Shown here piece after piece: positions 3,381-64,000 of a stretch of DNA of 64,000 bases; positions within the stretch are counted from its first letter, which is position 1; every line of letters begins with the position of its first letter. The DNA comes from an uncultured Gammaproteobacteria bacterium (lineage in GTDB: Bacteria > Patescibacteriota > Patescibacteriia > Patescibacteriales > UBA12465): contig CAYXNV010000001.1 of the NCBI GenBank assembly GCA_964466835.1, forward strand, positions 7,870 through 71,869, given 5' to 3'. The translations under genes were made by a program, and so were the position numbers. The notes under the pieces were generated by a model. It worked only from the letters and a program-made list of their open reading frames with translations, ran no database searches and was not told where the DNA came from.

Positions 3381-3684
3381 ATAAGTTTATTGCCTGTTTT
3401 AGGAATTAAAGGTGGCCAGAAAAGGTATTAAATTTTGAAAAACAATAACCACTTATTTAAGTGTTATTTGAGAAGATGTAATGACTGATTATTTTTAATT
3501 TTTTTAGCTAATTTTAGATTAAAAAATAGTAATAACATAACTAATTAATCTTCAAAAATAAGTTTCAGACGACCATTGATGGTGGTTAATTTTCCGTATT
3601 ATTCCTAAAAACAGATTTTAATTAATTTATAATTTTACGAATTTACTTTAGCATTTATTTTTTGGTTTGTAAAGGGTTTTTAAA

Positions 3685-3713
3685 TTTACTATTTTAGATT
3701 TTTTTGCTATAAT
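3685..3713 (+). promoter_or_regulatory. sigma70-like promoter (TTTACT-17-TGcTATAAT)
   Basis: An extended -10 TGcTATAAT lies at 3705-3713 and a -35-like TTTACT at 3685-3690. The element is about 45 nt upstream of a perfect SD (AAGGAGG) and the ATG at 3758. Confidence 0.55.
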
Positions 3714-3757
3714 TAACTCATATTTAACCCTGTTCTTTATTTAAAAAAGGAGGAAAA

Positions 3758-3958
3758 ATGAGCTATCATCACATAACTGATTTATATCTTGAAAATAATA
3801 ATCCCCCTACCTGTGTTTGCGGTGAAGAAATGTTTGCTGAAGACGATCATGGGCGTTTTAGATGTATTTGTGGTAAAAGGAAAACAGTTACTATTGGTGA
3901 ATCATCATCAGTAACAGCAGTTTTTGGTCCAAGAAAATTTTCGTTTTTTGGGCAATAA
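3758..3958 (+). CDS. small zinc-ribbon-like protein (66 aa), function unknown
   Basis: It contains CVCGEE...x13...CICGK (two CxC pairs). It has the strong SD aaggaggaaaaATG, its own promoter and its own terminator. Confidence 0.6.
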   Translation: MSYHHITDLYLENNNPPTCVCGEEMFAEDDHGRFRCICGKRKTVTIGESSSVTAVFGPRKFSFFGQ

Positions 3959-3982
3959 GAATTAAATTAAAGTGTATATAAT

Positions 3983-4012
3983 AACGAAGAGGTTATCCCC
4001 TTCGTTTTTTAT
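3983..4012 (+). terminator. rho-independent terminator
   Basis: The stem is acgaag(a)gg / cc(c)cttcgt, followed by tttttt. Confidence 0.7.
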
Positions 4013-4028
4013 ATTTTTTAATCTTTCA

Positions 4029-4057
4029 TTGACTAAACGCTAAAAATAGAGTAATAT
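4029..4057 (+). promoter_or_regulatory. sigma70-like promoter (TTGACT-17-TAATAT) upstream of infB
   Basis: TTGACT lies at 4029-4034, followed by a 17-nt spacer and TAATAT at 4052-4057. Confidence 0.55.
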
Positions 4058-4106
4058 TAATAAATAATATTAGCTAAGGTTGTAATAACCTTTTTATTTT
4101 ATCTCT

Positions 4107-12928: not shown

Positions 12929-12936
12929 AGTTTTTC

Positions 12937-12979
12937 GCTCTATCCGAGAAGTGGGTTTTAGCCCTCATCCCAGAAAGAG
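12937..12979 (-). promoter_or_regulatory. structured rpsO 5' leader (candidate S15 autoregulatory hairpin)
   Basis: The minus-strand RNA CUCUUUCUGGGAUGAGGGCUAAAACCCACUUCUCGGAUAGAG folds with 14 of 18 positions paired. The pairs include G-U wobbles next to G-C pairs. The wobbles only form in the minus sense. Confidence 0.45.
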
Positions 12980-13001
12980 TGCAATAAATTATAATATTCA
13001 C

Positions 13002-13262
13002 TTATTTTAAAGTGTTAATTTTTTTAGTTAATTTTGATTTTTTACGATTAGCAGTATTTTTTTTGATAATTCCTTTTTTGGTTGCCTTATCAATTGCTTT
13101 AATTATTTTTGGCAAATCTTCTTTAACATTCTTATCTTTAGCTTGGACTTTTTTAACGCTAGTCTTGATTAATCGTTTTAGATCGCCTTTTTGCTTGTTA
13201 TTAGCTTTTTGACGTTTAGCGCTTTTTCTTAGGTCTTTCTTAGCAGCTTTCTTGTTTGGCAT
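13002..13262 (-). CDS. rpsT: 30S ribosomal protein S20
   Basis: This 86-aa, highly basic protein reads MPNKKAAKKDLRKSAKRQKANNKQK, which is S20-like. Confidence 0.85.
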   Translation of the reverse strand: MPNKKAAKKDLRKSAKRQKANNKQKGDLKRLIKTSVKKVQAKDKNVKEDLPKIIKAIDKATKKGIIKKNTANRKKSKLTKKINTLK

Positions 13263-13380
13263 AAACAGTAATTAAGTAATAAATTTATTAAAAGTAATAA
13301 GATGTTAACATAAACTTAAATGAAAATCAAGGGCTTAGTATAATCAAAGAATTAATATGATTTTAGCTAATATTAGTAGT

Positions 13381-13412
13381 TAAATAAAAAATCCAAGATA
13401 TTCTCTTGGATT
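13381..13412 (-). terminator. rho-independent terminator
   Basis: The 9-bp stem aatccaaga/tcttggatt is followed on the minus strand by ttttttattta. Confidence 0.7.
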
Positions 13413-13434
13413 GTCACAATGAATTCATATTAGC

Positions 13435-14317: not shown

Positions 14318-15289
14318 TTATAATCCAGAAATAAGAATGGTAAGTTCGGTTTTTAGGTTAGCTTGTCCTTTTTTATTTAAAAAGTCTAATTCAACTAATC
14401 GATTAAGATAATTATTTAAACTTTCAATTGAGAAGTTTTTAGCCTGTTGATATCCTTTTTTAATGACAAATGGATGAAGCTTTAATTTTTTAGCTATTTC
14501 GGCTTGACTAGTTTTGGCTTCTAAAGCCTTTTTCATTTGTAGCAGTATTTTAAATTGTCTGATTAACATCGTTAATAAATATTCATCACTTAAACCAGCA
14601 GCTGTTTGTTCTTCCAAAAGTTTAATCGCTAATTCTTTGTTTTTTATACTTAAGGCATCAGTCAGGGCAAAAATATCTTCATCAAAAGAGCTGGTTACTA
14701 ATTCTTTCACACTTTCTATAGAGATTTCTTTATTATCTTTTTCTCGAAAAGATAGTTTTTTAATTTCTTTAGTTAATAACCAAAGATTTCCAGTAGTTAG
14801 GTTAAGTAGCAGAGAAGCGGTGGGCAGTTTAATGTCTTTGTTATATATCTTAGCTTCCTTTTTGATAAAAGACAATAATTGACTGCTGGTTAGTGGTTTA
14901 AATTCTTGAACAAATTTTTGTTTACTTAAAAAAGTGAATAATTTTTTTTGATTAACTTTAAGGGGGACATTTTTAGTATTTAATTCTTCGTCCCAGAAGA
15001 TAATAATGTTGTCAGAATCTTTAGAGAAGCTTTTTAAGTAATTAATTAGCTCAATAAATATATTATCTTTTTTATTATCAAATATATTTTCGATTACTAT
15101 TAATCTTTTTTTTACAAATAATGATCCGGTGCTTATTTTTTCGCTAATTTCCCCTAAATTAGTATCTTGACCATTAATCACGTTCAAACTATTAGATTCA
15201 GCATCTATTTTTTTAACGAATTCACTTTTTAGTTCGTTTAATTTTCGTCGGCTAGAAAAAGTATTGCCGCCGTATAAAAAAATAATCAT
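14318..15289 (-). CDS. holA: DNA polymerase III delta subunit
   Basis: This 323-aa protein has the HolA-like N-terminus MIIFLYGGNTFSSRRKLNELK and a helical C-domain. It overlaps murI by 4 nt. Confidence 0.7.
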   Translation of the reverse strand: MIIFLYGGNTFSSRRKLNELKSEFVKKIDAESNSLNVINGQDTNLGEISEKISTGSLFVKKRLIVIENIFDNKKDNIFIELINYLKSFSKDSDNIIIFWDEELNTKNVPLKVNQKKLFTFLSKQKFVQEFKPLTSSQLLSFIKKEAKIYNKDIKLPTASLLLNLTTGNLWLLTKEIKKLSFREKDNKEISIESVKELVTSSFDEDIFALTDALSIKNKELAIKLLEEQTAAGLSDEYLLTMLIRQFKILLQMKKALEAKTSQAEIAKKLKLHPFVIKKGYQQAKNFSIESLNNYLNRLVELDFLNKKGQANLKTELTILISGL

Positions 15290-16122
15290 AGTTCAGTAAT
15301 TTTTACTTTTTCAACTTTCTTAACTTTTTGTTCTAAAAATTTTTCCGCCATTTTTTTAAATTGGCCTGGATTATCAGTTGTATAAAGTTTATATGATGGC
15401 TTAGTAACTGATTTTATATTTAATTCAGCATGTCGTTGCAGATAGTCTTTTAAACTTTTGGTAATTATTTCACCTGGATGGGGAACCTCAATTTGATTAC
15501 CCATTATTTTTTTAATTTCTTTATACAAAAAGGGATAGTGGGTGCAAGCCAGGATCAAAGATTTAATTTGCTTTATTTTTAATGGTCGTAGATATTTTTT
15601 TAATATCATTTTAGTTTCGGGTTTTTTTATCCACCCCTCTTCTATTAGGGGGACTAATAAAGGGGTGCTTTGTTGATAAACTTTTAGCTTTGGATTGAGT
15701 TTATTTATTTCCAAAGGATAAGAATTGGATTCTATGGTTGCTTTAGTACCAATTACTCCAACCGGACCAGTTTTATCATTACCCACCTCTTCCACTAGAG
15801 GCCTGATTACCCCTAAAATTCTTCGATCAGGATATTTAGTAGGAAGATATTTTTGTTGCAGAGTACGTAAAGCTTGAGCAGAAGCAGTATTACAAGCAAC
15901 AATAATTAAGCCACAGCCCTGCTTAAACAAAAATTCAACTGCTTCACGAGTATAATTATAAATAGTCTCGGGAGATTTTTCTCCATAGGGCACTCGAGCA
16001 TTATCACCCAAATAAATATAATTATAATTAGGTAATTCTTTTAGGAAGTGTTTAAAAATACTTAATCCGCCCAAGCCAGAATCAAAAACACCAATTATAT
16101 TTTTATGTGATTTTTTTAACAT
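15286..16122 (-). CDS. murI: glutamate racemase
   Basis: Motifs are VFDSGLGGLS and LACTHYP. I prefer the ATG at 16122 (MLKKSHKNIIGVFDSG) over the track's extended start at 16230, which lies inside murD. Confidence 0.85.
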   Translation of the reverse strand: MLKKSHKNIIGVFDSGLGGLSIFKHFLKELPNYNYIYLGDNARVPYGEKSPETIYNYTREAVEFLFKQGCGLIIVACNTASAQALRTLQQKYLPTKYPDRRILGVIRPLVEEVGNDKTGPVGVIGTKATIESNSYPLEINKLNPKLKVYQQSTPLLVPLIEEGWIKKPETKMILKKYLRPLKIKQIKSLILACTHYPFLYKEIKKIMGNQIEVPHPGEIITKSLKDYLQRHAELNIKSVTKPSYKLYTTDNPGQFKKMAEKFLEQKVKKVEKVKITEL

Positions 16123-17431
16123 ATTCTTTAAACAAATTACCCCTCTCTTTATAGTTTTTAAATAGGCCAAAACTAGCGCAAGCAGTAGAAAGAAGGACGA
16201 TATCACCTGACTCAGCTTTAGATTTAGCAATTCTAACGGCTCTATTCATGTTTTTAACTTCTTTCATCTTATCTTTAGGAAAATTTATCCTAATTAATTC
16301 ATCTTTAATTCGTGAGGTGCCCCCACCTCCTAATAGGATTAGAAATTTAACTCTTTTTTTAATCTCATTAGCTAAACTTCTGAAATTTGCCCCCTTATCA
16401 GCCCCGCCAGCAATTTGAATGATTGGCTCAGAAAACGATTTTAAATCCAAAATAGTGCTCTCAGGGGTGGTAGAGAAACTATTATCAAAATACTTCACGC
16501 CATCAAGCTCAGTAACAAATTCTAGGCGATGTTCTAGGTTAGAAAAGTTAGCAATTGTTTTTTTATAGATATCGGGTTTTATTTTTAATATCTGAGCCAC
16601 CTTAACTGCAGCCGCTATATTTTCTTGATTAAAATCTCCCATCAATCTTGATTTTAAATTGCTTTTGTTAAAATAAGTGATTTGGCTTAGTGGTTTTTCT
16701 TTGTTCAAGCGTTCTTTTAAACTACTGTTAATAACCAAATGATCAGTCTTTTGTTGTTTTTTAGTAATATTCAATTTAGCTTGCCAATATTTTTCTAGAG
16801 AATAATGAAAATTGGGGTTATAGGGGTCAGCCGGAACAAGATGTTCTTTATATAAGTTTGTGAACACACTGATATGAGGAGAATAGTCCATATCTTCCAA
16901 TTGGAAACTAGATATTTCTAAAACAACATAATCATTAGACTCAATTTTTTCTAAAAAAGATAGAGGAGCTACCCCAATATTACCTCCCAGCCAAACCTTA
17001 TGGCCAGCCGCCTTTATTATTTCATAAATCAAGCTAGCAGTTGTCCCTTTTCCTTTAGTGCCAGTTACGCCGATGATTTTTTTACTAGGACAAAGAGAAA
17101 AGAAAAGATTAAAGGGGCTACTAAGCTCCACACCTCCTGATTTAATGGCTTGTTCCACTCCCACACAGAATAGGGGCCAGCCAGGTGAACGGAATAATAT
17201 ATCAAATTTATAGAGATCTTTATTAAAGTTTGTGCCTAGTTGATAATTAACTTTAAGATTTTTTAGTTTTGGCAAATTTAATCTCTTTTTTGAACGTTTA
17301 TCACAAATTGTTATTTCTGCCTTAATGTTCTTTTTATCTAACAAAGCTAACAAAGCTTGGTTTTCTAACCCTAAGCCTAAAAGAGCAATCTTTTTATTTG
17401 ATAATTTTTTTAATTGTTCTATTCTAGCCAT
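16103..17431 (-). CDS. murD: UDP-N-acetylmuramoylalanine--D-glutamate ligase
   Basis: It has the Mur ligase P-loop GVTGTKGKGTT and MurD-like N- and C-domains. I prefer the ATG at 17431 (MARIEQL) over the track's TTG at 17452. Confidence 0.85.
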   Translation of the reverse strand: MARIEQLKKLSNKKIALLGLGLENQALLALLDKKNIKAEITICDKRSKKRLNLPKLKNLKVNYQLGTNFNKDLYKFDILFRSPGWPLFCVGVEQAIKSGGVELSSPFNLFFSLCPSKKIIGVTGTKGKGTTASLIYEIIKAAGHKVWLGGNIGVAPLSFLEKIESNDYVVLEISSFQLEDMDYSPHISVFTNLYKEHLVPADPYNPNFHYSLEKYWQAKLNITKKQQKTDHLVINSSLKERLNKEKPLSQITYFNKSNLKSRLMGDFNQENIAAAVKVAQILKIKPDIYKKTIANFSNLEHRLEFVTELDGVKYFDNSFSTTPESTILDLKSFSEPIIQIAGGADKGANFRSLANEIKKRVKFLILLGGGGTSRIKDELIRINFPKDKMKEVKNMNRAVRIAKSKAESGDIVLLSTACASFGLFKNYKERGNLFKEYVKKIT

Positions 17432-17433
17432 AG

Positions 17434-20172
17434 TTATTTTAATTCTCCCCAATTATTACCCTGACTTTGATCTACTATGATAGGAGTTTTCAATTTAATT
17501 ACTTCTTCCATGATTTTTTTTATTTTTTTACTATAAAAAGGAATCTTATCCTTTTTTATTTCAAAAATCAACTCATCATGAACTTGTAGTATCATTTTAA
17601 TTTCTTTTTCCTGATCAGCAATTAATTCGTTTACTTTTACCATTGCCATTTTTATTAAATCAGCTGCTGTCCCTTGGATAGGAGTATTAATAGCCATTCT
17701 TTCTGCTCCTTTTCTTACGGGAACAATATTAGAGTTGATTTCTGGTAAGGGCCGCTTTCTTCCAAACAGGGTGATAGCATAACCGTTTTTTTGTGCTTCT
17801 TTAACAAATTTATCCACCATTCTTTTTATGCCAGGGTAGATGGTAAAGTATTTTTTGATAAATTCATTAGCTTGCCAATAAGGGATAGATGCACTTTGAC
17901 TAAGACCGTGAGGCCCTTGTCCGTACAGAATGCCAAAATTAACTGCTTTAGCTTCTCGGCGCATATTTTTACTCACCTTATCTAATTTTACCCCATTTAT
18001 TTCAGCAGCGGTGGTAGAGTGAATATCTTCATTATTTTTAAAAGCAGCAATCATCTTTTTATCATTAGACATGTGAGCGGCCAAACGTAATTCAATTTGT
18101 GAGTAATCAAAGCCAACTAATTGATAATCCTTTTTGGCCACAAAAGCTTCTCTGATCTTTCTACCCTCATCGGTTTTAGTGGGAATATTTTGTAAATTAG
18201 GTTCGGTTGAAGATAGTCGTCCAGTAGCAGTGATAGTTTGGTTAAAATTACTATGAATTCGTTTGGTTTTAGAATTGATCATGGTTGGTAGGGCATTTAA
18301 ATAAGTGGTTTGAAGTTTGTTTAGCTCACGATATGATTGGATTAAAGAAATAATAGGGTGTAGTTCAAATAATTTAACTAATTCTTCTTCAGCGGTAGAA
18401 AAGCCAGTTTTAGTTTTCTTTATTCCTTCGGTAGGGATCTCCAATTTATCAAATAAAATTCCTTGAAGTTGTTTGGGGGAGTTGATATTAAATTTAGTTT
18501 TAGCTAGACGATATATGTCTTTTTCTAATTTATTAAGTTTAGTGCTTACTATTTTATTTAAATTAACAATTGGTTTACTACTAAAACCAATGCCACTGTT
18601 TTCCATTTTACCCAGAACTGTAATCAGAGGTATTTCTATTTTATTCAATAGATCAATTAAATTTTCAGTTTGGATTTTTTTCTTTAATATATTGACTAGA
18701 CGATTAGAGAAGTCAGCATCTTCACAGGCATATAAACTTAGTTTATCAGGATCTAATTCTTTAAAGTCTAAAGTTAATTGTTTCGGTTGACTGTCAGCTA
18801 AATTATTTTTATTAATTTTTTCAAAACCAAGCTCAGAAAAGACTAGAGAATCTAAATTGTGTTGGCGATTACTAGGATTGAGGAGATAGGAGGCGACCAT
18901 TGTATCAAAAGCTATGCCTTTTAATTCTATGTTCTGATTTTTCAATACTCGCCAATCAAATTTTAGATTGTGTCCATATTTTTTTATCTTGGGATTAGCT
19001 AAAATTGGGGCTAATTTTTTAAGCCAAGTTTTTTTAGCTAGCACAAAGTAGGCTTCACCTTTTTGCCAAGAAAAACTAATGCCCAAAAGTTCAACCGTAA
19101 TTGGGTCTAAGCCAGAAGTTTCTGTATCTAGAGTAAAGGCCTTTTGAATTTTTAATTTTTTTAAGAAAACATTAAATTTTTTATCATTATCAATTAATTG
19201 GTACTTAAAATCTTTTGCATTACGAGCAAATTTATCTTCTTTTTCTTCTTGACTATCAGGATTAGCTTTATCCATTCTATCTCTCAGTTCTTTTACTTTA
19301 TTTAATAGAGATTTAAAGTTTAGATCACTAAATATATTTAAAACTTTATCAACGGGGAAAGAGGCAAAGGCAGCTTCGGGCAGAGAAAATTTAAAAGCAA
19401 TTTTACGCTGGATGGTTGCTAGTTTTTTACTTAAGTAAACATTCTTTTTTGAGGTTTTTAACAATTCTGAAGTCCGGGGTTTTATTCTCTGGTCATTTTT
19501 AGCAACAGCCTTATAGATATTTTCAATATTTTTGAAATTAATTAATAACTCAATCGCTGTTTTCTCGCCAATACCTTTAGCGCCAGGAATATTATCACTA
19601 GGATCACCTCGTAGAGCCTTGTAGTCAATAATTTGTTCTGGACTTAAATTATATCTTTCTCCTACTTTATCTTCATCATAGAGGATGCTATCTGATAAAC
19701 CCCGGCTCATGGTGTATACTTTAGTTTTTTTATCTATTAATTGCAGGGTGTCAAGATCGCCAGTTATGATAATCCGCTCTAATTTTTTTTCTTCTTTAGT
19801 TTTTTCACAAATAGCACCAATCAAATCATCAGCTTCATAGCCACTTTTTTCAAAAATGGGAATATTAAAAGCTTTAACCACCTCTTTTACTAAAGGAATT
19901 TGTTCATATAGCTCATCAGGCGCTTTTGTTCTAGTGGCTTTATAATCTTCATATTCTTCATGGCGAAAAGTTGGACCAGCTTTATCCAAAGTCAAAACAA
20001 CGAATTCTGGTTTAAATTCGTTTAATGATTTTAACAGGAAAGAGGTAAAACCATAGACAGCGTTCACTAATTGTCCTTTGCGTGTCCTAAGAGTAGGAGG
20101 TAAAGCGTGAAAACTACGATGAATTAAGGCATTTCCGTCAATAATTATTAACTTTGGTTTAGTTTTAGACAT
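17434..20172 (-). CDS. polA: DNA polymerase I (5'-3' exo, 3'-5' exo-like and polymerase domains)
   Basis: This 912-aa protein contains LIIIDGNALIHRSFHA, DYSQIELRLAA and LQVHDELIFE. Confidence 0.95.
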   Translation of the reverse strand: MSKTKPKLIIIDGNALIHRSFHALPPTLRTRKGQLVNAVYGFTSFLLKSLNEFKPEFVVLTLDKAGPTFRHEEYEDYKATRTKAPDELYEQIPLVKEVVKAFNIPIFEKSGYEADDLIGAICEKTKEEKKLERIIITGDLDTLQLIDKKTKVYTMSRGLSDSILYDEDKVGERYNLSPEQIIDYKALRGDPSDNIPGAKGIGEKTAIELLINFKNIENIYKAVAKNDQRIKPRTSELLKTSKKNVYLSKKLATIQRKIAFKFSLPEAAFASFPVDKVLNIFSDLNFKSLLNKVKELRDRMDKANPDSQEEKEDKFARNAKDFKYQLIDNDKKFNVFLKKLKIQKAFTLDTETSGLDPITVELLGISFSWQKGEAYFVLAKKTWLKKLAPILANPKIKKYGHNLKFDWRVLKNQNIELKGIAFDTMVASYLLNPSNRQHNLDSLVFSELGFEKINKNNLADSQPKQLTLDFKELDPDKLSLYACEDADFSNRLVNILKKKIQTENLIDLLNKIEIPLITVLGKMENSGIGFSSKPIVNLNKIVSTKLNKLEKDIYRLAKTKFNINSPKQLQGILFDKLEIPTEGIKKTKTGFSTAEEELVKLFELHPIISLIQSYRELNKLQTTYLNALPTMINSKTKRIHSNFNQTITATGRLSSTEPNLQNIPTKTDEGRKIREAFVAKKDYQLVGFDYSQIELRLAAHMSNDKKMIAAFKNNEDIHSTTAAEINGVKLDKVSKNMRREAKAVNFGILYGQGPHGLSQSASIPYWQANEFIKKYFTIYPGIKRMVDKFVKEAQKNGYAITLFGRKRPLPEINSNIVPVRKGAERMAINTPIQGTAADLIKMAMVKVNELIADQEKEIKMILQVHDELIFEIKKDKIPFYSKKIKKIMEEVIKLKTPIIVDQSQGNNWGELK

Positions 20173-20241
20173 ATATTAATTTTATCATTTTTAGGGAGTG
20201 GGAGCAAAAGGAATTTATAAAAAATTATCATAAGATAAAAT

Positions 20242-20269
20242 AAAGGCGCCGAATAGGGGCGCCTTTTTT
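20242..20269. terminator. GC-rich terminator-like hairpin upstream of polA
   Basis: The sequence aaaGGCGCC-gaatagg-GGCGCCtttttt has T-runs on both strands. Confidence 0.5.
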
Positions 20270-20339
20270 ATACGCTTGCGCGTGGGAAGTTTTATTCACT
20301 CTTGTGAAAAACAAAAAATAGAAATTTGTCTTTACCTAA

Positions 20340-20508
20340 GTAGGCCATAACGTCCTTCTCCAGGTATCCATCTTTGATTTCAAAGGGGAGAAAACGTTAG
20401 CGTGGATACTCATTAAGGTTAACCATGCTTTTTGCCTGCAACCCTCTTCGCTTAGTTCAAGGCTGTCGAAACAACCAGGAAGGAGCCAAGGAGGGACAGG
20501 AAGCCTAC
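20340..20508. ncRNA. unassigned structured RNA candidate A (family not recognised)
   Basis: The segment is GC-enriched and ORF-free. A closing helix forms between 20340-45 and 20503-08. An 11-bp hairpin spans 20349-20398. Its loop (20364-70) is complementary to 20403-09, giving a possible pseudoknot. A second 16-bp arm spans 20435-20500. Confidence 0.45.
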
Positions 20509-20629
20509 AAAATAAAGATCTTAGAAAACAATAGATTGTCTCCATCACGATCTTGTTTTTGTAAAAGAAAATGAGTTTGTGTCGTTAAACGACAAATAGT
20601 CTAGCTACCTTGTAGCTTTTCTGTGAAAC

Positions 20630-20910
20630 TAGATAGGGTTGAGATTAAGTCGCCAAGTCCGTAAAACCAAAATTATCTTTATGGTTTTTCTCTTTTGCCT
20701 TTTTATGCAAGCAAATGGATGCGAAAACGAATCGCAAATGGTCGCTTTCGGTTTAGGCAGTAGAGTTAATGGATTTGACGGTATAATTGCGGCGAGCGCA
20801 TCTAATTCCACAGAAGGGAATAACAATGAACGAATATAGATCATAACCCCTCTGTTTTGGTGTAATTAAATTATACATAGAAATAATTAAAAGTCAATTA
20901 TCTTTATATA
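20630..20910. ncRNA. unassigned structured RNA candidate B (some RNase P-like motifs; not confirmed)
   Basis: The segment is GC-enriched. Helices form at 20663-69/20682-88, 20720-24/20732-36, 20788-91/20797-800 and 20810-18/20848-55. There is no credible ORF. Confidence 0.35.
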
Positions 20911-20916
20911 AAAGAA

Positions 20917-20936
20917 GCGCCTCAAATATGAGGCGC
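20917..20936. terminator. GC-rich terminator-like hairpin
   Basis: The stem-loop is GCGCCTCA-aata-TGAGGCGC. On the minus strand it is followed by ttcttttatat. On the plus strand it is followed by ctttaggtttgtt. Confidence 0.5.
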
Positions 20937-21012
20937 CTTTAGGTTTGTTAGATCTTTTTGTAAGTTTTTTAAAAAGATAATTTCCGCAATAGTCGCGGTA
21001 GGGGCATTTTAG

Positions 21013-21187
21013 TTCTGTTTACCAGAATCGGGCTTATAGTCTGTCACTCTATCAAGCCCTCAAGCTAGCCGAATTTAGTTTTGCGGCTAGAGTTGAGTGA
21101 TGATCCGGCAAATACCAGCCCATTCATGCAATTGTTTTTTTGGTGAAATAGTTTTACGGGCAGGTAGCCTATCAATGGTAAACAGAA
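21013..21187. ncRNA. unassigned structured RNA candidate C (or MITE-like element)
   Basis: A perfect 12-bp closing helix forms between 21013-24 and 21176-87. Nested helices lie at 21030-34/21166-70, 21065-71/21084-90 and 21114-21/21158-65. Confidence 0.45.
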
Positions 21188-21347
21188 GGTTTCGGGCTCC
21201 CTTAAAAACGGGAATGGTAAAGTACTATTCATGATCCTCCTGTTTGATTATGCTTCTATATTGGCAAATTATTCAAAAAAAGTCAATATTAGGAGTTTAT
21301 TTAACATTTCTTTGTTTTCTGGTAGAATTAGAGGGAAGATAAAATAT

Positions 21348-22337
21348 ATGAAAAAAGTAGGATTATTTTTTGGCGGATTAAGTAATGAAGCTGAAGTTTC
21401 AATTATGTCCGCTAAAAATATAGTTAAAAGTTTTGATTATAAAAAATATAAATTAGTCTTAATCTATTGGCATAAGCAAGATGGTTATTTTTATAGAGTA
21501 AAGAATATTAATAATTTGAAGGTTGTTAAAAAAGATAGAATTCAAATTGAAAATTTTTCTAAAATTTTTGATGTTGCCCTATTAATGACTCATGGCCGTT
21601 ATGGTGAAGATGGTGTTTTGCAAGCAATGTTAGAGGGCCAGGGGATTAAATATTGTGGTTGTCGTGTTTTAAGTTCAGCTGTTTGCATGGACAAAGGAGT
21701 TTTTAAAGATTTATTAATTTCTAAAAATATCAGACAAACTAAATACTCAGTTTTGGATTATAAAAAATTTAGTGAAAGAGAAATACAAGCAGAAAAGAGT
21801 AGAGTTAGAAAGAATTTTAAACTTCCGTTATATGTTAAGCCGGCTAATTCAGGCTCTTCGGTTGGCATAAGTAAAGTAGAGAAGTATAAAGATTTAGATT
21901 CAGGTATTAAGCTAGCTTTGAAGCATGATTCTAAAATTGTAATTGAAGAAGGTTTTATAAATGCTAGAGAGATAGAGGTGGCGGTGTTAGGGAATAATAA
22001 ATTAAGAATTTCTAAGCCTGGTGAATTGAAATTAGTTAAAGATTTTTATAATTACGATGATAAATATAAATTAGGACAAGCCCAAAGCATTATTCCTGCT
22101 AAATTAACTCCTGCTCAAGTCAAAGAAATACATAAAATTGCCAAAGAAGCTTATCAGCTTTGTAATTGTCAGGGATTTGCTCGAATAGATTTTTTTGTTC
22201 ATCGAAATAAAATATATCTTAACGAAATTAATACTTTGCCCGGCTTCACTGATATCTCTATGTATCCAATGTTGATGATGAGTACGGGTATGAGTTACAA
22301 AGAACTAATTAATGCGATTATAAAGCTGGGATATTAA
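21348..22337 (+). CDS. ddl: D-alanine--D-alanine ligase
   Basis: The start MKKVGLFFGGLSNEAEVS is preceded by the SD gagggaag. Further motifs are HGRYGEDGVLQ and EINTLPGFT. The track's start at 21231 is an unsupported extension. Confidence 0.9.
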   Translation: MKKVGLFFGGLSNEAEVSIMSAKNIVKSFDYKKYKLVLIYWHKQDGYFYRVKNINNLKVVKKDRIQIENFSKIFDVALLMTHGRYGEDGVLQAMLEGQGIKYCGCRVLSSAVCMDKGVFKDLLISKNIRQTKYSVLDYKKFSEREIQAEKSRVRKNFKLPLYVKPANSGSSVGISKVEKYKDLDSGIKLALKHDSKIVIEEGFINAREIEVAVLGNNKLRISKPGELKLVKDFYNYDDKYKLGQAQSIIPAKLTPAQVKEIHKIAKEAYQLCNCQGFARIDFFVHRNKIYLNEINTLPGFTDISMYPMLMMSTGMSYKELINAIIKLGY

Positions 22338-22357
22338 CTAATTTATATAAATTGAAA

Positions 22358-22392
22358 TAAAAAAGACTACTTTAATATAGTAGTCTTTTTTG
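22358..22392. terminator. bidirectional rho-independent terminator
   Basis: The sequence aaaaaaGACTACTttaatatAGTAGTCtttttt lies between ddl (+) and tRNA-Ala (-). Confidence 0.7.
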
Positions 22393-22466
22393 TGGACCAT
22401 AAGGGACTCGAACCCTTGACCCCCTGCTTGCAAAGCAGGTGCTCTAGCCAACTGAGCTAATGGCCC
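22393..22466 (-). tRNA. tRNA-Ala (anticodon TGC)
   Basis: The reverse complement is gggccattagctcagttggctagagc...ttTGCaa... A G3-U70 pair is present. Confidence 0.9.
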
Positions 22467-22490: not shown

Positions 22491-22739
22491 CTATTTATTG
22501 TATTTGAAAAGAGGACTTAGTAGCCATTCGCCAAAGGCTGATCCACTGCCGGTCATTACAATAATTCCGATGACAATGAGTAGAATACCAACAATTTTAT
22601 AACCTAAACGTGAACCACCTTCAGATCCTAGTTTATCCTCAAACCAACCAATCCGACCGAAGTTTTGCAAAAACCATTCGGTCTTAATTACTAGGAAGCA
22701 ACCAGCCACGGTCATTAATATCCCTATAAATATATTCAT
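22491..22739 (-). CDS. small two-TM membrane protein (82 aa)
   Basis: It has two hydrophobic helices. Its start is 1 nt from the stop of the upstream LysM/M23 gene. Confidence 0.55.
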   Translation of the reverse strand: MNIFIGILMTVAGCFLVIKTEWFLQNFGRIGWFEDKLGSEGGSRLGYKIVGILLIVIGIIVMTGSGSAFGEWLLSPLFKYNK

Positions 22740-61743: not shown

Positions 61744-61745
61744 TT

Positions 61746-64000
61746 ATGTATAATCATCAAACAATAGAAAAAAAGTGGCAGGAAAAATGGCGGGAAAGTG
61801 GTTTGTATGAAACCAATCAAGATAATAAAAAGCCAAAATATTATATTTTAGATATGTTCCCATATCCTTCGGGAGCTGGTCTTCATGTTGGCCATCCTAA
61901 GGGATATATTGCTACTGATATTCTAACTAGAATGAGAATGATGCAGGGTTATAATGTTCTACATCCAATGGGTTTTGATGCTTTTGGTTTGCCAACTGAG
62001 AACTATGCTATTGAAAATAAAATTAATCCCAAGAAGGCAGTGGAAAAAAATATAGCTGTTTTTAAAAAGCAGTTAGAAATTTTAGGTTTTTCCTATGACT
62101 GGGACAGGGAAGTAAATACAACCGACCCCGATTATTATAAATGGACCCAATGGACTTTTTTACAGATGTTTAAAAAAGGCTTAGCCTATGAATCTAGTGA
62201 GCCAATTAATTGGTGTCCTTCCTGTCAAACAGGATTAGCTAATGAAGACTTAGAAAATGGTTTGTGTGAGCGTTGTGACAGTGAAGTTGAGCAAAAACCA
62301 ATGCGACAGTGGGTTTTGGAAATAACTAAATATGCCGATCGTCTTTTAGATGATTTGGATAAATTATCAGACTGGGATGAATCAACTAAAGACATGCAAA
62401 GAAATTGGATTGGTCGAAGTGAAGGAGCAGAAATTGATTTTAAAGTTAATAGAACGGACAGAATTTTTTCAGTTTTTACCACTCGCTTAGACACCATCTT
62501 TGGTTGTACCTATGTTGTCTTAGCTCCAGAGCATGAATTAATCCAAGAATTTAAAAATGAAATTACAAACTGGAAAGCAGTTGAAAAATATATAGAAGAA
62601 TGCAAGGATAAAACAGACTTGGAGAGAACCGATCTAAACAAAGAAAAGACAGGAATTTGCTTAAAGGGAACCAAAGCAATTAATCCTTTCAACAATGAAG
62701 AAGTTGATATTTTTATCACTGACTATGTCTTAGCTTCATATGGTACTGGAGCAGTAATGGCTGTGCCAGCTCATGATGAACGTGATTTTGAGTTTGCTAA
62801 TAAGTTCGCTTTACGAATGAAAGCCGTGGTGTTGCCTAAAGGAGAGACAGAATTTGAAGGCGAAGAAGCAATAATTGAAGATGGTATTCTTCATAATTCT
62901 GGTAGCTTTAATGGTTTAGATTCAGTTAAAGCTAGGAAAAAAATGCTTAAATGGTTAGAAAAGGAAAAGCTTGGGCGAAGAAAAGTGAATTATCGAATTA
63001 AAGATTGGGTATTTTCCCGTCAAAGATATTGGGGAGAACCAATCCCAGTTGTCCATTGTGAAAAGTGTGGAGTAGTACCAGTCCCAGAAAAAGATTTACC
63101 AATCACTCTACCCGAAGTAGATAGTTATGAGCCAACTGGAACAGGGGAGTCTCCTTTAGCAGCAATTGAAGATTGGGTTAATACCACTTGTCCTAAATGT
63201 AAGGGGTCAGCTAAACGAGAAACTAATACTATGCCTCAATGGGCTGGATCTTGTTGGTATTATTTGCGCTATATTGATCCTGATAATGATAAGAAATTAG
63301 TTGATAAGAAAAAAGAAAAGTATTGGTCACCGGTTGATTTCTATGTGGGCGGAGCTGAGCATGCTACTCGTCATTTAATTTATGCTCGCTTTTGGCACAA
63401 ATTCCTCTACGATATTAAGGTAGTTAATTATAAAGAGCCATTTACTAAATTAAAACATGTTGGTTTAATAATGGGAGAAGATGGTCGCAAGATGAGCAAA
63501 CGCTGGGGTAATGTTATAAATCCAGATGAAATAGTAATGAAATTTGGGGCTGACTCTATGAGAATCTATGAAATGTTCATGGGCCCATTTGAACAAGCGT
63601 GTAATTGGAACACTAATGGCTTAATTGGTGTCAGAAAATTTTTAGAGAAAATTATTTTGTTAGCAGAAATAGAAAAAGTTGTAGAAGACAAAAAAATAAT
63701 TTCTCTATTACATAAAACAATCAAAAAAGTAACTGAAGATATTGAAAATTTTCATTTTAACACCGCTGTCTCATCTCTAATGATTTTAGTAAACGCAATC
63801 ACTGATTATAAGAACAAAAAACAGGCTTTGCCTTTTGATAAAGAGGTGTTAGCGAAGTTTTTTCAGATTTTAGCACCATTTGCTCCTCATCTCAGTGAAG
63901 AGCTTTGGGAAAAATTAAATACTCAAGAAAGTATTTTTAATTCAAGTTGGCCAGGATATGATCAGGAATTAATAAAAGATGAAGTTGTTAATTTAGTTAT
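61746..64000 (+). CDS. leuS: leucyl-tRNA synthetase (3' end beyond window; not in ORF track)
   Basis: Own translation from ATG 61746 gives MYNHQTIEKKWQEKWRESGLYE...PYPSGAGLHVGHPKGY (HIGH motif). DGRKMSKRWGN (KMSKS motif) lies near 63490. The frame is open to the window end. Confidence 0.9.
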   Translation, partial: MYNHQTIEKKWQEKWRESGLYETNQDNKKPKYYILDMFPYPSGAGLHVGHPKGYIATDILTRMRMMQGYNVLHPMGFDAFGLPTENYAIENKINPKKAVEKNIAVFKKQLEILGFSYDWDREVNTTDPDYYKWTQWTFLQMFKKGLAYESSEPINWCPSCQTGLANEDLENGLCERCDSEVEQKPMRQWVLEITKYADRLLDDLDKLSDWDESTKDMQRNWIGRSEGAEIDFKVNRTDRIFSVFTTRLDTIFGCTYVVLAPEHELIQEFKNEITNWKAVEKYIEECKDKTDLERTDLNKEKTGICLKGTKAINPFNNEEVDIFITDYVLASYGTGAVMAVPAHDERDFEFANKFALRMKAVVLPKGETEFEGEEAIIEDGILHNSGSFNGLDSVKARKKMLKWLEKEKLGRRKVNYRIKDWVFSRQRYWGEPIPVVHCEKCGVVPVPEKDLPITLPEVDSYEPTGTGESPLAAIEDWVNTTCPKCKGSAKRETNTMPQWAGSCWYYLRYIDPDNDKKLVDKKKEKYWSPVDFYVGGAEHATRHLIYARFWHKFLYDIKVVNYKEPFTKLKHVGLIMGEDGRKMSKRWGNVINPDEIVMKFGADSMRIYEMFMGPFEQACNWNTNGLIGVRKFLEKIILLAEIEKVVEDKKIISLLHKTIKKVTEDIENFHFNTAVSSLMILVNAITDYKNKKQALPFDKEVLAKFFQILAPFAPHLSEELWEKLNTQESIFNSSWPGYDQELIKDEVVNLV

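Follow-up and report, generated by a model that had tools for sequence, protein, structure and literature searches.

The spacer between polA and ddl in a Patescibacteria genome raises the question of whether a G+C-rich, helix-dense stretch of DNA holds genes for non-coding RNA (ncRNA) or structured messengers for small proteins. The spacer lies in a window of 64,000 nucleotides (nt) of contig CAYXNV010000001.1 (positions 7,870 to 71,869), where 1175 nt separate the start of polA (20172, minus strand) from that of ddl (21348, plus strand). The answer favoured here, with reasonable rather than firm confidence, is that the spacer consists of three tandem minus-strand transcription units, each with a small open reading frame (ORF) of 55-71 codons. 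In the best reading, unit 3 stands alone, and units 2 and 1 form a conserved two-ORF module (b+a) with one promoter and one terminator. The units would then probably be translation-gated, highly structured small-ORF messenger RNAs (mRNAs), possibly dual-function RNAs, rather than ncRNA genes.

An earlier note on this DNA had described the spacer as long, G+C-enriched and free of ORFs, with three blocks and two GGCGCC hairpins, and had proposed that it contains structured-RNA genes, one or more of which may be unclassified. The length is borne out, as no other gap between ORFs of at least 90 amino acids (aa) in the window is as long, the median being 80 nt, and the ddl start is upheld by database homologues that match the 329-aa Ddl encoded from ATG 21348 over its full length. 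The G+C fractions of blocks 1, 2 and 3 are indeed raised (0.46, 0.39 and 0.42, respectively, compared to 0.33 in the window and 0.30-0.31 in the linkers), and both GGCGCC hairpins are confirmed, with scores typical of intrinsic terminators. The spacer is not ORF-free: each block overlaps a minus-strand ORF of 55-71 codons, and those of units 3 and 2 belong to a conserved family. The further remark that the ORFs lack a Shine-Dalgarno (SD) sequence is correct for unit 1 and wrong for units 3 and 2.

A family of small open reading frames

The small-ORF family (55-71 codons) appears from sequence to be specific to one Patescibacteria lineage and undescribed, and it is absent from Pfam and Rfam. 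The synteny of polA and ddl is kept in the closest metagenome-assembled genomes (MAGs), all of which have an unusually long spacer of 390-860 nt adjoining ddl. The ORFs in these spacers agree with those of the window in position and strand; they have an SD and an ATG, and S-x-x-F-P-[SF]-[ILV] is their N-terminal motif. Homologous units are found beside ddl in at least ten Patescibacteria MAGs: L054, L071, L074 and L111 have one such ORF, L055, L058, L061 and L068 have two, L115 and L117 have longer ORFs (88 and 115 aa) at the same position and with the same N-terminal motif, and L077 also belongs to the set. Across about 1.4 Mb of fetched loci, small ORFs that combine SD, ATG and motif were found in this family and at one chance site only.

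Two types of unit can be distinguished. Unit 3 has its orthologues in L054 and L111 (ORFs of 59 and 50 aa, respectively). Unit 2 is of the b-type (FPSVE), as are L061b, L068b, L119b and L120b, and unit 1 is of the a-type, with a hydrophobic N-terminus and the motifs SS[LVI]FP[SF]L and E(E)CGQK, as in L061a, L068a, P0126, P0128 and P0129. The order within the b+a module (promoter, b ORF, hairpins, a ORF, terminator) is constant; the module is present in the window, L061, L068, L119 and L120, and partially in L121. The L120 copy adjoins neither ddl nor polA within the 2.5-kb contig recovered, and thus the module is not tied to one intergenic site.

Homologues were found through ddl and polA synteny, the family being too diverged for single-sequence DNA search. 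Indeed, nhmmer and blastn with the three blocks gave no match in 53 and then about 110 fetched loci, among the blocks themselves or elsewhere in the window, which indicates that the elements evolve fast. A hidden Markov model search of 1.84 billion representative proteins added three real members, and a profile search of 5.8 billion proteins returned the input members only. P0127, a repeat protein, appears to be a spurious member and was rejected.

The case for translation is built on several features. A conserved -35 hexamer, TTGAC(T/A/G), lies 51-55 nt upstream of the ATG in six homologous units, and all b-type units have a GGAGG-type SD at a fixed short distance before the ATG. The sense frame of 12 units contains no stop codon as compared to 18-58 in the other five frames, a count that is partly circular, the units having been chosen by their ORFs. 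The ORFs stay open and in frame across homologues diverged past nucleotide alignability. In nucleotide alignments of four orthologous pairs, the pooled differences by codon position are 92/89/131 (chi-square p=0.005), the insertions and deletions in well-aligned orthologous pairs measure 3, 3 and 9 nt, and the ratio of non-synonymous to synonymous substitution rates (dN/dS) is 0.16-0.37. The L119b ORF can be aligned with L061b and L068b over ~60 nt at its start and ~40 nt at its end; the ~130 nt in between are unrelated, and still the frame is open and in register. Taken as marks of a small-protein gene, SD and start, a conserved open frame and codon-position bias are all present, with a signal that is modest overall and weak in the a-type. 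Translation is likely for the b-type ORFs (units 3 and 2) and uncertain for the ORF of unit 1, and the predicted protein products are fast-evolving.

Conserved structure and a predicted switch

The blocks are conserved structured RNA elements, in which the structure is kept independently of the ORF. Compared with dinucleotide shuffles, the block folds have z-scores of -3.4 to -5.0, with the exception of block 2 on the plus strand (-1.6), and the putative whole transcripts reach -10.7 and -5.6. In the orthologue pairs, 63, 36 and 44 consensus base pairs include 4, 7 and 7 compensatory and 11, 6 and 10 one-sided changes, and none is broken. The b-type units L061b and L068b have a synonymous rate (dS) of 0.58 as opposed to 2.1 for ddl, so their synonymous sites are constrained. 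For the a-type, block 1 included, six sequences aligned with plain MAFFT yield 41 pairs in RNAalifold, 16 of them changed on both sides; the alignment is 87.7% paired compared to 43-47% with slid partners, and none of 500 shuffles is as good. Since 36 of the 214 paired cells are G.U, pairing on the opposite strand would drop to about 74%, which favours the minus strand as the RNA strand.

No known RNA family accounts for the blocks. At the gathering threshold, Rfam finds only eight tRNAs in the whole window, all elsewhere. At E<=10, positions 20100-21450 give weak terminator-driven matches only (the best at 25.9 bits, compared to a gathering score of 46), and none to transfer-messenger RNA (tmRNA, RF00023), RNase P RNA (RF00010/RF00011), signal recognition particle (SRP) RNA (RF00169) or 6S RNA (RF00013). 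ARAGORN detects no tRNA or tmRNA in the spacer, and Rfam 15 finds only tRNAs in the homologous loci L054, L055, L058 and L061. Two resemblances picked out by eye were rejected for lack of covariance-model support: the P4-like AAGUCCG/CGGGCUU of RNase P, whose pieces lie in two separate units, and an SRP-like GGAAGGAGCCAAGG, whose pieces belong to different units. Much of the structural part of the earlier note thus stands: each block has its terminal helix in the place described, conservation and covariation are found in related genomes, and no standard housekeeping RNA explains the blocks. The elements are absent from Rfam as it had supposed. Its step from structure to ncRNA genes rested on there being no credible ORF, and is weakened because that premise fails.

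Every unit is built on three segments: S1, a leader of ~17 nt (with the SD in the b-type); S2, a CU-rich segment in codons 8-20; and S3, an SD-like segment at or after the stop codon. Pairing of S1 with S2 encloses the SD and the start codon. In the predicted fold, each RNA is a compact multi-branched body whose closing helix is S2:S3. One and the same S2 position varies in step with both partners, as seen when the three segments of unit 3 (Table 1) are set beside those of L111 (S1 AAACGGAAG, S2 CUUCCGUUUGCCA, S3 UGGCAAACG) and L068b (S1 AAAUAGAAGG, S2 CCUUCUAUUGAGGGUUG, S3 CAACUCUCAGUAGAA). In a six-unit alignment, the pairing of S2:S3 reaches 93%; 8 of its 12 pairs are compensatory, and none of 500 shuffles is as good. 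S1:S2 is 88% paired compared to 47-58% with a slid register. As the register was set by hand via complementarity, these figures support the architecture without being independent evidence for it. RNAduplex of S2 against S3 in long windows was noisy (mean z -1.6), and the curated register and pair counts were used instead; the MAFFT alignment of unit 3, L054 and L111 mis-registered S1 and S3 and was excluded from the counts.

The two helices overlap by 4-8 nt and hence compete. In partition-function calculations, a thermodynamic prediction on which the switch as a whole is based, the mean unpaired probability of the SD is ~0.2 in nascent RNA or without S3 and ~0.42 at full length; 8 of the 10 units show a rise, among them unit 3 (0.11 to 0.51) and unit 2 (0.21 to 0.50). 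The proposed mechanism is as follows. In the nascent RNA, or when the 3' end has been removed, S2 would pair with S1 and hide the ribosome-binding site. Once present, S3 would compete for S2, close the molecule end to end and raise SD accessibility, acting as an anti-anti-SD, so that only complete transcripts would be translated. As S2 lies within the ORF, a translating ribosome would melt both helices, and the switch would be reset as soon as one ribosome had passed S2.

Layout of the units and their neighbourhood

The features of the spacer are collected in Table 1. Some of them call for comment. The -10 element of unit 3 is ambiguous, either CAATAT after 17 nt or an alternative pair, TTGAAT-18-CATAAT. 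A T6 run is clear on the minus-equivalent strand at the counterparts of the unit 3 terminator in L054 and L111. The closing helix of unit 2 contains two G.U pairs among its 16 base pairs and is valid on the minus strand only. The hairpins between units 2 and 1 have no T run, so the two units are probably co-transcribed, as judged from the sequence. The minus-strand RNAs predicted from this layout measure about 340 nt (21250 to 20910) for unit 3 and about 620 nt (20862 to 20240) for units 2 and 1. The leader of unit 1 is conserved as UUUUACAAAAACUA in a-type homologues. Intrinsic-terminator-like sites number 5, compared to 0.9 expected.

Table 1. Features of the polA-ddl spacer and adjoining polA, in window positions (SD, Shine-Dalgarno sequence; S1-S3, pairing segments).
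Feature	Position	Strand	Remarks
Unit 3 promoter region	21247..21287	minus	-35 TTGACT at 21286-21281
Unit 3 S1	21236..21245	minus	leader with SD AAACAGGAGG; ATG 21232-21230
Unit 3 small ORF	21065..21232	minus	55 aa, MNSTLPFPFLREPETFCLP...KFG; AGGAGG, 3 nt (AUC) before AUG
Unit 3 S2	21176..21189	minus	CU-rich anti-SD CCUUCUGUUUACCA, codons 15-19; can pair with S1 or S3
Unit 3 hairpin	21030..21059	minus	directly past stop codon, GGGCUUGAUAG...CUAUAAGCCC; also in L054 and L111
Unit 3 S3	21013..21024	minus	SD-like UGGUAAACAGAA; 12-bp closing helix of block 3 with S2
Closing helix, block 3	21013-24/21176-87		S2:S3
Small terminator-like hairpin after unit 3	20984..20998	minus	
Unit 3 intrinsic terminator	20915..20938	minus	GGCGCC hairpin and T run
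Unit 2 promoter	20870..20897	minus	TTGACT-16-TATAAT, 11/12 consensus matches
Unit 2 S1	20847..20857	minus	leader with SD AAACAGAGGGG; ATG 20844-20842
Unit 2 small ORF	20629..20844	minus	71 aa, MIYIRSLLFPSVELD...; GAGGGG, 2 nt (UU) before AUG; b-type
Unit 2 S2	20800..20818	minus	anti-SD CCCUUCUGUGGAAUUAGAU, codons 9-15
Unit 2 S3	20619..20634	minus	AUCUAGUUUCACAGAA, overlaps stop codon; 16-bp closing helix with S2
Closing helix, block 2	20619-34/20800-15		S2:S3
Two small hairpins between units 2 and 1	20573..20617	minus	no T run
Unit 1 S1	20549..20563	minus	A-rich leader UACAAAAACAAGAUC, no SD
Unit 1 ORF	20336..20545	minus	69 aa from ATG (70 from GTG 20548); a-type
Unit 1 S2	20502..20520	minus	GAUCUUUAUUUUGUA pairs with S1; adjoining GUAGGCU pairs with S3
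Unit 1 S3	20340..20346	minus	GGCCUAC, overlaps stop codon; block 1 closing helix
Closing helix, block 1	20340-46/20502-08		S2:S3
Units 2+1 intrinsic terminator	20242..20266	minus	GGCGCC hairpin, upstream of polA's own promoter
polA	17434-20172	minus	

Sequence is repeated between the units, namely the -35 context (AAAAGTCAAT on the plus strand) at 20889-20898 and 21278-21287 and the GGCGCC terminator cores at 20241-20272 and 20907-20941, which would fit a tandem duplication of entire transcription units. Copy number varies among relatives. In L113 (2610-3000 of a 911-kb contig), a 20-codon remnant without SD (MNHSSVLSSLL...) is all that is left, and the unit has apparently decayed and so is dispensable in at least one lineage. 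In L120 (1340-2090), the complete b+a module follows genes for a MerR-type helix-turn-helix protein and a 95-aa protein, which lie downstream of ddl in other genomes. In L058 (2663-3251, 5601-6151) and L061 (6490-9141), a large AAA_11/AAA_12 helicase gene lies between polA and ddl, and the polA-side spacer of L058 also holds a family unit. It may be that the units are markers of a variable insertion hotspot or move together with it. P0126 (145 aa; L119, 480-917) is not translatable with genetic code table 11, two in-frame TGA codons having been read through in the original call; with table 11, the ORF at this locus ends after 84 codons.

As for the flanking genes, PolA and Ddl are 47-61% and 60-75% identical, respectively, to proteins of Patescibacteria, Falkowbacteria-like and Moranbacteria MAGs. 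A ddl promoter (TTAACA-16-TAGAAT, plus strand, 21301-21328) stands back to back with that of unit 3. Upstream of polA (20173-20210, minus strand), an apparent extended -10 element, TGATAAAAT, ends 6 nt before the ATG with no SD, and the arrangement AAAAATGATAAGATTATAGT-ATG is kept in L054, L111, L113 and L117; this suggests that the polA mRNA may be leaderless or nearly so. A Logan contig (SRR8146440, L053) matches window positions 15092-22420 with 99.99% identity over 7330 nt, with no mismatch and one 1-nt gap. The annotation splits its polA into two genes (758 and 140 aa), a sign that the gap is located in polA and is an assembly or strain frameshift. Beyond ddl and a tRNA-Ala gene, an 82-aa ORF without Pfam match (22491-22739, minus strand) has counterparts of 82-87 aa, equally without Pfam match, at the equivalent position in L054, L055, L058, L111 and L113, and looks like a conserved small protein encoded upstream of a LysM/M23 peptidase gene. 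Elsewhere in the window, gaps above 450 nt between ORFs of at least 90 aa occur at 3381-4106, 12929-13434 and 61744-62224 (G+C 0.26, 0.27 and 0.35), and the whole-window Rfam scan has no match inside them.

Alternative explanations and known systems

Several observations weigh against small-ORF mRNAs, in addition to the circularity of the stop count, the hand-set register and the thermodynamic basis of the switch. Amino acid conservation is weak and largely at the ends, and the small ORF of unit 3 is only 36% identical to that of L054, for which Ddl is 75% identical. The a-type units, unit 1 among them, have neither SD nor promoter of their own, their stop positions vary (69-112 codons), and the closest a-type pair differs at 18/14/18 sites by codon position, with no third-position excess. 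The FPS[IV] and TFCL "motifs" both spell CCUUCUGU in different frames, which is the anti-SD, and the ECGQK "motif" falls on an RNA helix strand. Searches with Pfam, NCBIfam and PADLOC profiles gave nothing significant, family profiles match 9 proteins among 1.84 billion representatives, and an AlphaFold2 model of a 66-aa homologue is uninformative (predicted local distance difference test score, pLDDT, 57; predicted template modelling score 0.19). Much of this would be expected if the three blocks were minus-strand non-coding structured RNAs, whose SD-like and anti-SD-like segments and AUG are structural and whose frames are not translated. Covariation-backed structure in every unit, constrained synonymous sites, the variable stops and the poorly protein-like products all favour such RNAs, and the strongest case is block 1. 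They are nevertheless unlikely, if far from negligible, given the GGAGG-type SD at fixed spacing from the ATG in all b-type units, the one frame that is uniquely stop-free in at least 12 diverged units, the pooled third-position excess with indels in multiples of 3, the ORF kept across a replaced middle segment in L119b, and the 88-115 aa ORFs of L115 and L117.

Small-ORF mRNAs might also belong to loci resembling type I toxin-antitoxin systems, in which folding of the mRNA would keep toxic peptides from being translated and an antisense or trans-acting RNA would be the antitoxin. Both the tandem copies and their scatter over genomic positions would then be accounted for. The idea agrees with the finding that, among close genomes, units are duplicated in tandem, vary in copy number and decay (L113), with the second genomic context of the module in L120, with the hydrophobic N-termini of the a-type, and with an architecture of ORF-internal anti-SD and end-to-end helix that has been described for aapA3 (PMC6733600). 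It is improbable all the same, as no conserved antisense promoter was found within or beside the units, no transmembrane segment is seen in the b-type products, the logic predicted here runs opposite to that of hok and aapA, no profile in defence or toxin-antitoxin libraries matches, and a literature search found no paper linking type I toxin-antitoxin to Patescibacteria. That the units are leaders, attenuators or riboswitches acting in cis on polA or ddl is very improbable. The position between the two genes is conserved and alternative pairings and terminators lie upstream of polA on the same strand, but the units diverge from ddl, whose promoter is beyond their 5' ends, and are separated from polA by strong terminators and then by its own conserved extended -10 promoter; moreover, a helicase gene lies between the units and polA in L058 and L061, and the L120 module adjoins neither gene. 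It is scarcely credible, finally, that the spacer holds what is left of a larger gene in decay, or insertion debris without function. The missing SD of unit 1, the truncated L113 copy and the variable copy number are in keeping with decay, but at least ten genomes keep promoter, SD, terminator and structure, with compensatory changes, there is no similarity to any larger protein family, and no intact longer gene was found.

With translation-gated small-ORF mRNAs as the preferred reading, the products could serve as small toxins or secreted peptides, or else the functional event could be translation as such. A bolder version, rather unlikely to hold, is that these are a hitherto unrecognised class of self-gating RNA-plus-peptide modules of one Patescibacteria lineage, either the first type I-like toxin modules of the candidate phyla radiation (CPR) or dual-function RNAs in which a 3' SD mimic would allow only finished transcripts to be translated, with b+a as a small mobile two-component cassette. 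The locus has no bearing on any long-standing open question. In a genome-reduced CPR bacterium with little spare DNA, the lineage yet keeps one to three units beside essential cell-wall and replication genes. If the preferred reading is true, an unannotated small-protein/RNA family would be added to a phylum whose small genes mostly escape gene callers, and several of the homologues are uncalled in public annotations. The units would also provide a compact natural three-way switch of SD, anti-SD and SD mimic with overlapping coding and structural constraints, useful for the study of translation control and for benchmarking methods that separate structured mRNAs from ncRNAs.

Among known systems, the housekeeping RNAs (tmRNA, RNase P, SRP and 6S RNA) are likewise G+C-enriched, helix-dense islands with closing helices in an AT-rich genome. 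Dual-function small RNAs such as RNAIII/hld, SgrS/SgrT and SR1/SR1P are ~250-600 nt long, with their own promoter and terminator, a conserved structure and a short translated ORF. The units have no sequence or Rfam relationship to them, and no target pairing or regulatory role can be predicted. In the icaR mRNA of Staphylococcus aureus, the UCCCCUG motif of the 3' untranslated region is an anti-SD, and its pairing with the SD leads to repression of translation (PMC3868564). The likeness is that a 3'-terminal element of the same mRNA governs access to the ribosome-binding site by pairing; in contrast to icaR, the 3' element of the units is SD-like, pairs with an ORF-internal anti-SD and would be an anti-anti-SD.

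Type I membership is not claimed. The predicted products (55, 71 and 69 aa on transcripts with putative promoter and terminators) are close in size to the small ORFs, usually <60-70 aa, of type I systems, but they are mostly not hydrophobic, as the b-type has no transmembrane-length stretch and the N-terminal run of the a-type extends over ~12-15 residues only. No antisense antitoxin was found, and a scan of 13 units detected no conserved antisense promoter, which a consensus scan cannot exclude; the literature search likewise returned nothing on type I toxin-antitoxin in Patescibacteria and no described RNA motif at this locus. In aapA3 of Helicobacter pylori, anti-SD hairpins within the ORF work during transcription, and long-distance contact between 5' and 3' parts locks the full-length RNA; a 3' anti-SD pairs with the SD, which leaves the full-length RNA inert until trimming of its 3' end activates it (PMC6733600). 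The units share with aapA3/IsoA3 and hok/Sok a small ORF in a compact mRNA, a CU-rich anti-SD near or inside the ORF that sequesters the nascent SD, long-range pairing between the 5' and 3' ends, covarying hairpins, and loci that are often tandem and variable in copy number (PMC6733600). An SD-sequestering fold and a 5'-3' long-distance interaction are both present, S1:S2 and S2:S3 covarying, with a predicted polarity that differs: the 3' element of the units mimics the SD and pairs with the anti-SD, and the full-length RNA is predicted to be more translatable. All in all, in architecture the units most closely resemble type I toxin mRNAs.

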